NCBI RefSeq assembly: GCF_056712565.1 | Contig: NZ_JBWXXM010000002.1 | DNA length: 64,000 bases | Reading direction: 5' to 3' (one strand) | Origin: a plasmid | In this document: piece by piece, positions 46,838 through 61,800 of the stretch | Layout of the letters: each line of letters starts with the position of its first letter | How positions within the stretch are numbered: position 1 is the stretch's first letter | Made by a program: the position numbers

Positions 46838-49800
46838 TAAAAACCGGAAATAACGCCAGAAATGGTGGAAAAAATAGCCTAAATAGGCTGATTCGATGTG
46901 TTTGCAGGAAAAAAATTGGCCCAGATCCGCGAAATTTTAATCAGCGAGTCAACTTGGGAAGAAATGACCTGCTTATTCGCACCTTCCTTAGAACCGGTAA
47001 TTTACCCTTGTATGGCGTACCGCAGTAGGGACAAACCGGCTTTGTCTTACCTGAGAAAACGTACCATTTCTGTTCACACGCCTTGTTCTGGCAGGGCTGT
47101 ATCAGATCGACTGTTTTAACCAGGGCACTTTCCCACTCATCGGCGGTCGGGCGTTTATTGGCATCGTGTAAGCCATCAATAAAGGCGCGTTCAAACAAAG
47201 GCGTCAAATAAGGGCCCATGATGGTGTAAGGAATTTTCTCCGGGTCAGCCCAGGGCAGTGAAAAGGAGGATAGCTGACTGACTTTGACTGCATTGCTTTT
47301 GTCTGTCGGATGTTCAATGAAGAGTGCCTTCTCACCCATAGATAAGGTCTCATCACGTACTTCATCCGACATGTCATGTATTTTTCCGCCACGTAGCGGA
47401 TGACGGAAGAACAGATACATGTAGATAAGCACCGACAGCGCATGACGGTCAGTAGAAATGCTTGGCAATACGCGGTTCGGATCCTCTTTGGAAAGATGGC
47501 TGGTTTTCACCACTTCCGGAGCGATAAAATCCGGGGTGCCCACGACGTCGGGAGGATACTTTCCAGGGACAACCAGGCCGTCTACGTCAATGATGCAGGC
47601 ATGTCCCATTTCTGGATCGATAAGCACGTTTTTATAGCTTAGATCGCTGTGACAGAGACCTGCCGCATGCATCCTTCTGACGGCTCTTGTTAGCAGCAGA
47701 CAGACCTTGAGATAGGTAAGCGTATTGCCTCGTTCACGTGGGTCGAGAAATTTATTCTGGTTGCTGGCGCTGGCAAACCATTTGCCTTCCTTTTCACGGC
47801 CTTTTATGCCAAGAAAATCATCGTTTTTAGAGCCGTATTTAAAGAAAAAGTAGCTTTTGTAGGTTGGAACCACGATGCCGATTTTATCCCCATGCTCAAC
47901 AACGTGGGTCGGCCAGCAAAACAGGTCCTTCCAGTATTCACCTCCGGACTGGCCAAAAATGTTTTGCCTGTAGCGTCCGGTGATCATATCAATCCGATCC
48001 CGGGCCTGCTCGTTCTGCGGTTTATGATAAAAAGCGACGACGTATGATTTATCAGGCGAGAAGTAAACATCCTTCATCGAGCCCGAACCAATTACCTCGT
48101 CAACATACTGGACTGTTTCGCCGTCCTTTGTTTTGCACGTAACAATATTTGCCATATTGATCACCGAAGAAGCGTATCCCTTACCACAACACCGCAATAG
48201 TGCGGTCATCGTGGTTCCCTGTGGAGAAAAAGTTAAGCCAGTCGCCTAACCTCTCAGGCGCAATACTGGCGTCTGTAAGGACAGGGATGAGCTCATCAAG
48301 GAGACGGGTCCATTTTTCGTCACTGCGAAGCCCGTTATCTGTCTCAAACAGAGGGTCTGATACGCCATCTGTCATGAGGATCAAGTGAGATACATCATTC
48401 CATTTACCCACGCTGATGCGGCCGCTAAACGAGGGGTCTGCGATAATGCTCTGGTCAAGAAAGCGGGTTTGTCCTGCGTATTCTCCGCTATCGGGATTTC
48501 CCAGTATCCTGACTTTACCGGAAGGGCTGTATGCACCTATCGCACCATCACCAAGCCAGAATGCAGCCGCAAACAGCTCGTTATCAGTTCGTAGCGCTAC
48601 AGTTGCCAGTAGGGTTGTTGAATAGGATTTCACAGGTTGTTCTGCACAAATGGCTTCGTTCTGGATACTGTTGACCGCGAGCGTAGCTGCCTGTTTAAAA
48701 TGATGAAGCATGGCGTTTATGGTTGCCTGCTGATCGCTCCCTTCCCACGCCGTGATGTGCTGCTTTAGATGGACGCCTTTCAAACCACTGAGCTGATTGA
48801 AAAGGTAATCGCCAGCCGTTTGGACTGCAATCCGGGAGCCTTCCTGGGAATTTACCGCACTACCGGCCCCGTCTGCGACCAGCATGACAGACCATCCTGT
48901 TTCCTGGCAGTGGTTGATATAGAAGTCGTCATCTCTGAAGCTCCCGGCATGCTCATGAGATCGTCCCCGGCGACTGGCGGCAGCAATACGTATGTCACCC
49001 CTGACCAGGCCAGCAGCGTCCAGATGGGACTTAGGGTAGGAAGCGTCTGCTGGTGGCTCTACCACCTTCCACAGGCTTCTCGGATCGGGATTGACTATAA
49101 AAAGCTGTTTTGTTTCGCATTCGTCGTGCGAAGCGCATGACCAGAGTACTGAAAGCTCTATATCGCCGCTTTCGGTGGGTGTACCTGTCAGCAACTTATG
49201 CTCTTTGTCAAAGGTCAGGCCAATGTTCCTGGGAAAGACAACGTCCCTGACAGTAGCCTGCTGGCCCTCATCCAGAACTATAGCAACCGGCGAAGAGAAA
49301 CGTTCGCCTGCGCGGGCGTTGGGAATAACTATTTTAGCTCTCGGGGGAACGGCAGGTGGCACAGCTAATCCGGCCCGCTGCTGGCCTGTCGGTATCTGCC
49401 CGGGTTTTAATACCAGGGAAGACAGGTTTTCGTCTTCCCTCTGTGCTGGTTTATCAAATTCGTAATAAGGCATCAGCTTCCAGAACGGAGGATGAGGTTC
49501 ATTTTCTGGCAGGGGTTGCAGTAATGGTGTATCGGTAGCGTCAATGCCCGGGTTATCAGCATCACTTACGACCGTTTGTTGCTGATCGGAAAGGCTGGAT
49601 GCTGACGAGGGGGCGATCTCTGCGTCGTTATAACCTTCGCTAACCCGCGCAGATAAACCCTGTGCAAGGCTCTCAATCCGCTCTTTAAGCCGCATAATCT
49701 CTTCAGTAAGGGAAGGGTCGTGCGATAGAAGAAAAAGCCGCTCACCTTCTACAGGGTGGCCCAGCTCAGACAGCACTAAGCGGATAATCTTCTCTTCAAG

Positions 49801-58800: not shown

Positions 58801-61800
58801 GCCGCATGACTGAGGGTGGCACGGGAATGTGCCTGCCGAGTACTTTGCTGACAAACAGAAAGGCGCGTTTCGGGTTACGTCTTTCAGCGATATCAAACAG
58901 GTCATCGAGCGAAACATCACCCTGGTCGCGGGTTACCTGTATCGTACCGCATGAGAGGGTACGGCGATAAATCATATCTTCGAGGGTATCAGACATAAAC
59001 ACGCCTTAATTCAGATGGTTAGAGAGTGATTCCGGGTAAACGATGACATCTGTGATGGATCTCACTGCAACCGGAGAAAAGGTATTTCTGGCGCTCTGGA
59101 TCACCGCATCTTCAGACATCAGACCGAGCTTAAAGGCAGCAAACAACCCGGGAAGGTTCACCCCGCTGTGAAGGGTATAACCCACCCCGCCTGACGGACG
59201 CATGTTGGTTTCAAGCAGCACCGGGTTGCCATTCACATCGTTTCGCGTCTGAACATTCACCAGCCCGTCGGCCTTCATAACCCGGGCGCAGTCACAAGCC
59301 AGTTCCCAGGCGCTTCCTTCGTTTACCAGATACTGGATAGCCCCTTCCTTACGGCGTCCCACGGCTGCGAGTATTTCGCCCTTATCCGCGAGGATATCGA
59401 CGGAAAATTCCGGGCCTGGCAGGTACGGCATCAAAACAAGGGGTTTAAACGACTCAGAAGCCGATGCTGCTGCAATATACTGTTGCGGACTGACCAGACG
59501 ATGTTCGGGATGATTAAAGACGGCCATGGGCGAAGCACTGTCATCAAAGCGCCAGAATCCCATGCCATAGATACCCGTCACCGGCTTCACGCATACCGGG
59601 CTGTCCGAGAACGGCGGGGCCGCGAGGTGCGTCTTTAATTCTGCCAGCGTATTCACCCGCCAGGACGGTACGACCGGGAGCCCGTTTTGCTCCATAAACT
59701 GAGCAAAAGTAACTTTTTCGTCAGCCAGAGTTAACCAGTCGACGCCTGTTGCACCGGTAGTAAGGGTGGCTCCGGTCGACTCAATGGCTGAACGGTGTTC
59801 TTCAAACCACTGGCTGTTACGGCCAGTATGAATATGGTGGATGCCGTAGGTCTGAATGGTTTCCTGAATAAACTGAAGACGTTTTTGAGGATCTTCAGGT
59901 TCAGTCAAAGAATAATCGGCAACGGAAAGAATTTCATGTCTTTCGTTACGGTGGGAGGCAAATACGGTAATAGCAAAATTATTTTTTTGTGCAAATGATT
60001 TTACCCCCTGAATAATATCTCGCTGGGAGGACAAACCTTCCATAAACCAAATTTTCTTGTTCATTTTTTTTAATTATCCGGAACGCCATGCAAATTTATG
60101 ATTGAGAAGTGAGTCTATGAGTGTCTACGCTACATGTCAATCATAATATGATTAATAACTTCAGTGGTTATGGAGTGCGTCAGTGTTTTTTTTAGTGCCT
60201 TATAACGTATTGATATTTAAATTAAAAATAGAAAAATGAACACCATGAAAAGGATTTATTTTTGTGTTTTTGAAGAAAACTACCAAAATTTCCCTTGTCA
60301 GAGAACTTCATCATGATATGATTTTCTTCGTCAGTTACTAAATATACCTTTGATTGTCTCGGTCATTACCATTTTAAGGAATAAAACATGGTTTCATTAA
60401 GTAAGAACCAGACGGTATCACTCAGCAAAGAATCTTCAGCATTAAGCCAGCTTCAATTCGGTCTCGGTTGGGATCCGGTTAAGAAAAAAGGTCTTCTTGG
60501 AGGATTGTTTGGAGGCAACGACTCAATCGATCTCGATGCTGGCTGCGTATTAATGGACAGCACCGGTAAAACAATTGACACCATCTGGTTCCGCAAACTG
60601 GAATCCACCTGCGGCGCTGTTGTGCACAGTGGCGATAACCTGACCGGTGAGGGTGACGGTGACGATGAGGTGATTAAGGTCAACCTCTCCCGACTGCCTG
60701 CAAACGTTGAATACCTGGCGTTTACGGTAAACAGCTTCCGTGGTCAGTCGTTCAATGACGTCGAAAACGCGTTCTGCCGCGTTGTCGATCAAACCGGCAA
60801 AGAGCTGGCTCGCTACAAGCTGACTGAGCAGGGCTCACATACCGGGATCGTTATTTCTTCGCTGCGCCGTAATAACGGCAACTGGGACTTTACCGCCCTT
60901 GGCCATGCCTGTCGCGGCCGCACAATTGACGATATGCACTCCGATATCGTTTCAGCGGTTATTCGCTAATGAACCTGACGCCGGGGGGCAATGCCCCCGT
61001 TCCAGCCCAGGAGTTGCGGGTCCGGATCACCTCGGGCGGCCAGGTGGATGCTTCGGCGTTTCGCCTGTATGCCGACGGGAAGGTGCAGGGTGATGCGGAC
61101 ATGGTGTTTTATGGTCAGCCACGTAACGATGATGGTACCGTCAGCCTGGTCAGTGAAGGCCAGTACTCAACCTTTACTGTCGCGCTCAACCGGCTGAAAC
61201 CTGATGTCCAGAAAATTGCGTTCACCGTGACCTGTGACGGTGGGCAGACGGTGTCCGGTCTTCGTAATCTTTCCATCGACGTGGAGCAAGGGGCTACCGG
61301 CCTGGTTAGCGGCAGTGTCGAACTGAGCGGCCGTCAGGAAGCAGCCTTAATTCTGGGTGAATTTTACCGTCGTAATAATGACTGGAAATTCCGCTTCGTT
61401 GCGCAGGGGTTCAACGGTGGACTTAAACCGCTGGCAGAGCATTTCGGCGTAAATATTGCCGACGAACCGGCTCCCGCAGCCCCGACTCCTCCGGTTGTAA
61501 CCCCTCCGCCAGTTGAGACAAAAATCAGCCTGAGCAAGGTATCGCTGACAAAAGAGAAGCCTGCAATCAGCCTGACCAAACGGGATAACTTCGGTGAAAT
61601 CCGGATCAACCTGAACTGGCACCGGGGCAGCGGCAAATCAGGCTTTGCAGGCATGTTCGGCTCCAAAGGAATCGACCTGGATCTGGGGGCCTTTGTTGAG
61701 CTTCAGGACGGGTATAAATCGGTCATTCAGGCGCTCGGTAATGCATTCGGTAATTATCGCGATGAACCGTATGTTCAGCTCAAGGGCGATGACCGGACGG

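Follow-up and report, generated by a model that had tools for sequence, protein, structure and literature searches.

An IncHI2 ter accessory region with two separable modules: a biosynthetic operon and a vWA/TerD/PP2C/kinase cassette interrupted by an IS5-family element

The DNA considered here (hereafter the window) is a stretch of 64,000 nucleotides from a plasmid contig (NZ_JBWXXM010000002.1, RefSeq assembly GCF_056712565.1), and our subject is the block of genes that lies beside its tellurite resistance (ter) operon. Positions 48181–60064 are very probably the accessory half of the IncHI2 ter locus, consisting of two separable modules that are both transcribed away from terZABCDE(F); within the window, the divergent genes terZ, terA, terB and terC occupy 60388–63667. 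Module 1 is a seven-gene operon on the minus strand (60064 to 53347) that extends from an ATP-grasp gene through terW. Module 2 is a cassette of six genes, in the order vWA, TerD, vWA, vWA-TerY_C, PP2C and kinase (52884 to 46656 in intact plasmids), the last of which is broken in the window by an insertion sequence (IS) of the IS5 family.

The identity of the locus is established by comparison with known plasmids. A megablast search of 48181–60064 against PLSDB (72,556 plasmids) matched 1370 records, of which 680 have at least 99% identity. Over all 11884 bp, the interval is 100% identical in nucleotide sequence to many plasmids from Salmonella, E. coli and E. albertii that type as IncHI2A, which bears out the IncHI2 origin proposed in the initial annotation of this DNA. 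The IncHI2 ter locus of the R478 type, as found in pSTM6-275 and pXH990_1, shows the same 100% identity and the same divergence from terZABCDEF, and the RefSeq annotation of these two plasmids gives the same gene list in the same order. They differ from the window in one respect: in the window, the kinase gene that follows PP2C is interrupted by an IS5-family element. Given the 100% matches and identical gene lists, the locus in the window is known, being both very common and already annotated, and one more identical copy adds nothing by itself.

The interval contains twelve intact minus-strand genes, with sensible start codons and no internal stops in the open reading frame (ORF) listing and translations. 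Spacing between neighboring genes ranges from an 8-bp overlap to a 25-bp gap, with two larger gaps, one ahead of terY3 (85 bp) and one that separates terW from terY1 (462 bp). Pfam scans were run on the concatenated translations of the window genes, and the results are included in the following list, which begins with module 1.

59006–60064, minus strand: ATP-grasp ligase, first gene of the operon (Pfam ATPgrasp_Ter PF15632, 1.6e-36; RefSeq WP_001035162.1)
57854–58996, minus strand: phosphoribosyltransferase (PRTase) with C-terminal TRSP (Pfam PRTase_2, 1e-62; TRSP, 2.3e-22)
57088–57861, minus strand: sugar-phosphate phosphatase of the haloacid dehalogenase (HAD)-IIB type (PDB match, 3e-43); its start overlaps the PRTase gene by 8 bp
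56007–57086, minus strand: StiP, PRTase-like, with C-terminal PELOTA (Pfam StiP, 5.8e-88; PELOTA_1, 6.8e-24)
55051–56007, minus strand: CitE/HpcH-like C-C bond lyase, a TIM barrel (Pfam C-C_Bond_Lyase PF15617, 2.3e-112)
53832–55040, minus strand: DUF4236 protein, 402 amino acids (Pfam DUF4236, 8.5e-21)
53347–53814, minus strand: terW, small DNA-binding regulator, last gene of the first operon (RefSeq "tellurium resistance protein TerW"; AMRFinder, 100% identity)
52246–52884, minus strand: terY1, vWA with a metal ion-dependent adhesion site (MIDAS) (Pfam VWA, 1.5e-12; DTSGS...T...D in the translation)
51582–52223, minus strand: terX, TerD family (Pfam TerD, 3.9e-50)
50944–51582, minus strand: terY2, vWA (Pfam VWA, 1.3e-10)
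49818–50858, minus strand: terY3, vWA with a Cys-rich TerY_C metal-binding tail (Pfam VWA, 3e-12; TerY_C, 3.4e-52)
48181–49818, minus strand: PP2C phosphatase (Pfam PP2C_2, 4.9e-46, residues 284–529; 25% identity to E. coli PphC)

These twelve genes, their order and their coordinates agree with the initial annotation, as judged from the ORF listing, RefSeq annotation, and Pfam and structure matches. Each of its assignments (ATP-grasp, PRTase, HAD, StiP-like, CitE-like, DUF4236, TerW, TerY, TerX, TerY, Cys-rich vWA and PP2C) was recovered by profile, structure-sequence or annotation evidence: TerD, vWA, PP2C, PRTase and ATP-grasp by Pfam, and HAD by a match to solved structures. An NCBIfam search of the window proteins gave only generic matches below threshold.

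Evidence for two modules comes from the boundary between them and from their distribution in other genomes. At the boundary, terW is followed by a terminator-like hairpin, the 462-bp gap and a promoter-like site ahead of terY1.

53312–53335, minus strand: terminator-like hairpin directly after the terW stop (10-bp stem with 6 GC pairs, then a T-rich tail)
53086–53115, minus strand: promoter-like site before terY1 (TTGCCG-18-TATATT; 9/12 matches, to consensus only)

The chromosomal island of E. coli O157:H7, with which the initial annotation had suggested a comparison, contains the ATP-grasp, PRTase, HAD, StiP, lyase, DUF4236 and terW genes together with divergent terZABCDE (97.7% identity). 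However, terY1, terX, terY2, terY3, PP2C and the kinase are absent from it; homology stops about 60 bp past terW (about 53283), and IS66 copies lie directly beyond. The reverse situation is found in contigs of Thiorhodococcus mannitoliphagus and Nitrosomonas communis, which encode vWA (212 amino acids), TerD (213), vWA (213), vWA/TerY_C (350), PP2C and kinase (499–504) in this order. Both cassettes are preceded by TerD, and that of Nitrosomonas also by TerC, but no ATP-grasp, PRTase, StiP or lyase genes occur within 10 kb on each side of them. Plasmids of IncHI2 and of K. pneumoniae IncFIB/IncHI1B type carry both modules.

The K. pneumoniae virulence plasmid locus (NTUH-K2044 type) has the full two-module layout with an intact 499-amino-acid kinase; PMC8115787 describes it as the ter operon together with a putative biosynthetic cluster. 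Its sequence is diverged, and its intergenic regions are largely unalignable with those of the window except for the promoter and palindrome blocks discussed below. The 462-bp terW-terY1 spacer shows no conservation between IncHI2 and K. pneumoniae, and a conserved regulatory element considered for this spacer was dropped on that ground. The initial annotation had treated 48181–60064 as a single extended region. Its genes and their order are right, and its limits fall exactly on the PP2C stop and the ATP-grasp start, but it comprises two transcription units and two evolutionary modules, and the second unit runs on past PP2C into a Ser/Thr kinase gene.

In intact plasmids, this gene encodes a 499-amino-acid Ser/Thr kinase and begins 25 bp after PP2C, completing a set of vWA, PP2C and kinase. 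In the window, it is split as follows.

46988–48155, minus strand: 5' part of the kinase gene, codons 1–388 (Pfam Pkinase, 3e-9; identical to pSTM6-275 up to the junction)
45792–46987: IS5-family insertion sequence of 1196 bp (from colinear BLAST against intact pSTM6-275, with a 4-bp overlap)
45860–46840, plus strand: IS5 transposase, ORF of 326 amino acids
45456–45791, minus strand: displaced 3' remnant of the kinase gene, codons 389–499, predicted FHA-fold domain

The element shows the features of its family: a length of about 1.2 kb, terminal inverted repeats, a DDE transposase and a 4-bp YTAR target duplication, here TTAG at 45788–45791 and 46988–46991. It starts with GGAAGGTGCG and ends with CGCACCTTCC, and related elements carry the annotation IS5-like ISKpn26. 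A search for the IS-kinase junction in PLSDB found no plasmid that shares this insertion. The truncated kinase keeps its kinase domain and zinc ribbon, and its frame reads through 15 IS-encoded codons to 46941. Because the element removes the predicted FHA-fold domain from the kinase, the cassette is damaged in the window. On a plasmid of Enterobacter kobei (NZ_CP110879.1, 221172–223519), the annotation places ISEc68, an IS5-like element distinct from that of the window, in a matching stretch that also spans this kinase gene; this hints at repeated disruption of the gene.

Homologues of the kinase are found from Enterobacterales to Chromatiales and Nitrosomonadales, with 65–86% identity and lengths of about 499–509 amino acids; such conservation and constant length across gamma- and betaproteobacteria is unusual for a gene on mobile elements. 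The zinc-ribbon cysteines (C354-x4-C359...C374-x2-C377) are invariant in 88 homologues, and short strands are modelled at this position. Many residues in the last 110 positions are also invariant, and this C-terminal domain is predicted to adopt a forkhead-associated (FHA) fold, modelled as an 11-stranded beta-sandwich. The domain had no Pfam FHA match, and is absent from the Pfam and NCBIfam results as well as from the RefSeq names for the kinase, which are "LPS kinase InaA family" and "helix-hairpin-helix domain-containing". Four residues invariant among the homologues, R405, S413, H418 and N451, could be the counterparts of those that bind phosphothreonine in FHA domains.

The cassette fits the definition of a TerY-P triad, as it encodes a MIDAS-containing vWA protein together with PP2C and a kinase that bears a zinc ribbon. 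The MIDAS motifs are intact in the translations of all three vWA genes (DTSGS, DTSGS and DCSES, each followed by the T and D further on). PP2C and Ser/Thr kinase genes are consecutive, an arrangement kept in the K. pneumoniae, Thiorhodococcus and Nitrosomonas loci. The N-terminal region of PP2C, about 280 amino acids (48979–49818), had no match in Pfam or NCBIfam; in the Thiorhodococcus and Nitrosomonas cassettes, too, PP2C is a long protein (561 and 519 amino acids). Previously described TerY-P triads (Anantharaman et al., 2012; Gao et al., 2020), including those associated with CoCoNuT, share the vWA protein, PP2C and Ser/Thr kinase with C-terminal zinc ribbon (PMC11090510). They differ from the triad of the window, which is part of a fixed cassette of six genes that also includes two further vWA genes and one TerD gene, and in which the kinase has a predicted FHA-fold end instead of an oligonucleotide/oligosaccharide-binding (OB) fold or a zinc ribbon alone.

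A more distant relative is the chromosomal yegL-pphC-yegI set of E. coli K-12, which also encodes a vWA protein, a PP2C phosphatase and a Ser/Thr kinase (29%, 25% and 21% identity, respectively). Ser/Thr kinase activity has been demonstrated for YegI (bioRxiv 10.1101/819920), and PphC appears in the RefSeq record as a protein-serine/threonine phosphatase, which together support the view that such triads are real kinase-phosphatase pairs. The K-12 set is nevertheless distinct: YegI is a 648-amino-acid two-pass membrane protein (10.1101/819920), unlike the window kinase, PphC has no counterpart of the 280-amino-acid N-terminal region, TerD and TerY_C partners are missing, and yegJ lies between the genes.

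TerY-P triads have been proposed to act as metal-sensing phosphorylation switches, and related triads defend against phage (PMC11090510, PMC7699616). We infer a signaling role for module 2, in which metal-binding vWA proteins of the MIDAS type and a TerD protein would be coupled to a reversible Ser/Thr phosphorylation switch, and the FHA-fold domain of the kinase would read out threonine phosphorylation within the cassette.

Module 1 contains the ter-associated biosynthetic gene set (ATPgrasp_Ter, PRTase_2-TRSP, HAD, StiP/PELOTA and CitE-like lyase, beside TerD/TerB/TerC genes), and the same set is present in the O157, K. pneumoniae and P. aeruginosa clusters. Some of its proteins have additional sub-threshold or partial matches. 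The ATP-grasp protein gave a carbamoyl-phosphate-synthase-like NCBIfam match below the cut-off, the lyase gave weak matches to citrate lyase beta and RipC, and the DUF4236 family match is limited to the N-terminal 55 of 402 amino acids. A DUF4236 gene is also found downstream of the ter genes in P. aeruginosa plasmids.

The chemistry of the ter-associated enzyme module was reportedly proposed by Anantharaman and colleagues in 2012, and the steps given here are based on that proposal. We infer that module 1 combines transfer from phosphoribosyl pyrophosphate (PRPP), ATP-grasp ligation, a lyase reaction and HAD dephosphorylation. A base-like acceptor would be phosphoribosylated in a PRPP-dependent reaction and decorated by ATP-dependent ligation of a carboxylate (ATP-grasp), the CitE-like lyase would make or trim a carbon unit, and the HAD enzyme would strip the phosphate to leave a nucleoside-like small molecule. 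A nucleoside-like metabolite is also what the literature predicts for these enzymes (PMC8115787, PMC11090510, PMC12054061). The initial annotation called the product of the module still unknown, in agreement with papers up to 2025, which say the same (PMC8115787, PMC12054061). The question of the product is a real one, and it is not made more tractable by this copy of the locus.

The HAD protein was the sole assignment in the initial annotation that had no above-threshold support from Pfam or NCBIfam (Pfam Trehalose_PPase, E 0.11; NCBIfam mannosyl-3-phosphoglycerate phosphatase (MPGP), 3.6e-9, below the cut-off). The assignment is settled by a full-length match (residues 2–253, E 3e-43) to solved HAD phosphatases deposited as "trehalose phosphatase" (PDB 6CJ0/6D3V/6D3W), together with motif I (DLDDT) and motif IV (GDSLSD) in the translation. 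When the crystallised P. aeruginosa protein was searched against plasmids with tblastn, it matched P. aeruginosa plasmids at 99.6% and 92.7% identity, in genes overlapping a PRTase gene, and the HAD of IncHI2-type plasmids at 36–37%. In both P. aeruginosa plasmid stretches (L004 and L005), the phosphatase gene is at 10992–11750, between PRTase and StiP, and carries the RefSeq name "Trehalose-6-phosphatase". The full series reads ATP-grasp, (peptidase), PRTase, "trehalose phosphatase", StiP, HpcH/CitE lyase, HAD-IB, TerZ, TerA, TerB, TerC, TerD, TerE. This cluster is colinear with terZABCDE, and differs from that of the window in having a trypsin-like peptidase (L004, 8666–9805) and a second HAD, HAD-IB (L004, 13784–14512), and in lacking terW at the corresponding position. 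Because it is set between PRTase and StiP in a ter series, the crystallised phosphatase is the positional orthologue of the ter-module HAD.

Module 1 and the ter operon may share a regulator that acts at their divergent promoters. The relevant features are as follows.

60065–60387: divergent promoter region between the ATP-grasp gene and terZ, a 323-bp spacer with two palindrome copies
60140–60153 and 60310–60323: palindrome ATCATRATATGATT, two copies, exact matches

On the ATP-grasp side, there is a promoter-like site TTGACA-17-TAGACT (60140–60112, minus strand), and on the terZ side TTGTCA-16-TATGAT (60295–60322, plus strand). One palindrome copy abuts the -35 element of the former and the other overlaps the -10 element of the latter; these two are the only exact copies in the 64-kb window. 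Both palindrome blocks are perfectly conserved in the otherwise much-diverged ATP-grasp/terZ spacer of K. pneumoniae. Based on position and conservation, the palindrome is a candidate operator, with TerW the obvious protein to bind it. TerW gave weak HTH_11 and RHH_1 matches in Pfam, and its K. pneumoniae orthologue is annotated as a CopG ribbon-helix-helix protein. Regulation of the ter operon by TerW is reported in the literature (Valkovicova et al., 2011, as cited in PMC12054061), and through the conserved palindrome TerW would control both divergent promoters. An Rfam scan of 45000–64000 at gathering thresholds matched no RNA family, so that neither the promoter region nor the terW-terY1 gap appears to hold a riboswitch or small RNA of a known family.

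Several observations weigh against parts of this interpretation. The promoter and terminator calls are consensus matches whose overall counts are no higher than in shuffled sequence. The candidate phosphothreonine-binding residues of the kinase were matched by eye, and their spacing differs from that of canonical FHA domains. For module 1, the order of the enzymatic steps is conjecture and the literature names no product; moreover, the sole activity measured for an orthologue of the HAD used trehalose 6-phosphate as substrate and not a ribonucleotide-like compound. The initial annotation had linked the region to tellurite, phage and colicin resistance. This is correct for the ter locus, but for the accessory genes the link is indirect because the phenotypes map elsewhere: according to PMC12054061, loss or reduction of tellurite resistance, phage inhibition and colicin resistance is assigned to transposon insertions in terZ, terC and terD, and terZ-F alone confers tellurite resistance (PMC8115787). 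Taken together, these two results make the accessory region dispensable for the classical phenotype.

We considered whether terY3-PP2C-kinase, with terY1, terX and terY2, is instead a stand-alone TerY-P anti-phage system of the type described by Gao et al. (2020), to which tellurite resistance would be incidental. The vWA, PP2C and Ser/Thr kinase of the cassette are the three components of such a system, the cassette itself travels separately from the biosynthetic module, protection against T7-like phages is reported for TerY-P-like modules (PMC7699616, PMC11090510), and phage inhibition is among the phenotypes of the ter locus (PMC12054061). However, the phage inhibition by R478 was mapped to terZ, terC and terD (PMC12054061), and validated systems carry an OB fold after the kinase (PMC11090510) where an FHA fold is predicted here. 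Searches of ten proteins against PADLOC-DB, rerun to E 10, gave no match for vWA, PP2C, TerD, ATP-grasp, StiP or lyase, although it is unconfirmed whether PADLOC-DB contains TerY-P models; the kinase matched generic kinase models only, and TerW likewise gave only generic matches. Since its matches were generic or lacking, this search offers no support for filing the cassette under a catalogued defense system. The cassette thus lacks the C-terminal OB fold and the profile match that mark the experimentally validated TerY-P defense version, and any such activity may be lost in the window, where the kinase is truncated. We regard a stand-alone defense system as unlikely.

It is less likely still that the whole minus-strand block is a single biosynthetic operon of 13–14 genes with vWA, TerD, PP2C and kinase as obligate parts of the pathway. 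Adjacency and shared orientation of the two parts in IncHI2 and K. pneumoniae plasmids would fit such an operon, but the hairpin and 462-bp gap separate them, the spacer is unconserved between IncHI2 and Klebsiella, the O157 island has the enzymes without the cassette, and Thiorhodococcus and Nitrosomonas have the cassette without the enzymes.

A final alternative concerns the product of module 1. The P. aeruginosa enzyme is described as an "extra-chromosomal TPP", and PMC6838324, which cites Cross et al. (2018) from the same laboratory, reports phosphatase activity on trehalose 6-phosphate. No trehalose-6-phosphate synthase or other glycosyltransferase was found in any cluster examined (IncHI2, O157, P. 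aeruginosa or K. pneumoniae), and because of this we read the activity as that of an active sugar-phosphate phosphatase rather than as a sign of trehalose production; it fits a final dephosphorylation that would lead towards a riboside-like product. That the HAD is a genuine trehalose-6-phosphate phosphatase, and that module 1 makes trehalose or a related stress-protectant sugar instead of a nucleoside-like compound, is highly improbable: the deposited name, the reported hydrolysis and the RefSeq name of the P. aeruginosa ter-cluster orthologue speak for it, but the clusters lack the synthase and glycosyltransferase, the genes conserved beside it encode an ATP-grasp ligase, a C-C lyase and two proteins of PRTase type, the window HAD reaches only E 0.11 against Pfam Trehalose_PPase, and HAD phosphatases are commonly promiscuous in vitro.

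Beyond the two-module reading, one could imagine that both modules and terZABCDE form one metabolite-based circuit against stress or phage. Module 1 would supply a signaling molecule or toxin that resembles a nucleoside, and the FHA kinase and PP2C would gate its production or the response to it, while perturbation of metals or the envelope would be sensed by the vWA and TerD proteins. We consider this speculative and rather improbable. If it were true, the pathway would have its first enzyme of known structure in the P. aeruginosa "trehalose phosphatase", and the recurrent IS hits in the kinase would be a sign that a system both costly and toxic to its own host is selected against.

Outside of these genes, the flank upstream of the kinase (38981–45791, equal to positions 1–6811 of the pSTM6-275 stretch) encodes a Tus-like terminus-binding protein, a tyrosine recombinase and an Hha/YmoA-family protein, and is ordinary IncHI2 backbone, as in pSTM6-275. 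Antisense ORFs on the plus strand of the accessory region (e.g., 55156–55665 and 57178–57867) were rejected as shadow ORFs, as they lie wholly within well-supported genes and RefSeq has no gene there.

The ter locus is among the commonest accessory gene sets on large resistance and virulence plasmids of enterobacteria, and PMC8115787 and PMC12054061 connect it with gut fitness and virulence. Its accessory region is best regarded as a pair of independent modules. The kinase gene, which is part of the second, is broken by an IS in this plasmid, and the predicted FHA-fold domain of its product is not shown by current annotations. For the first module, an orthologue of its HAD enzyme has already been crystallised and assayed as a phosphatase in vitro, which offers a point from which to work out the product.

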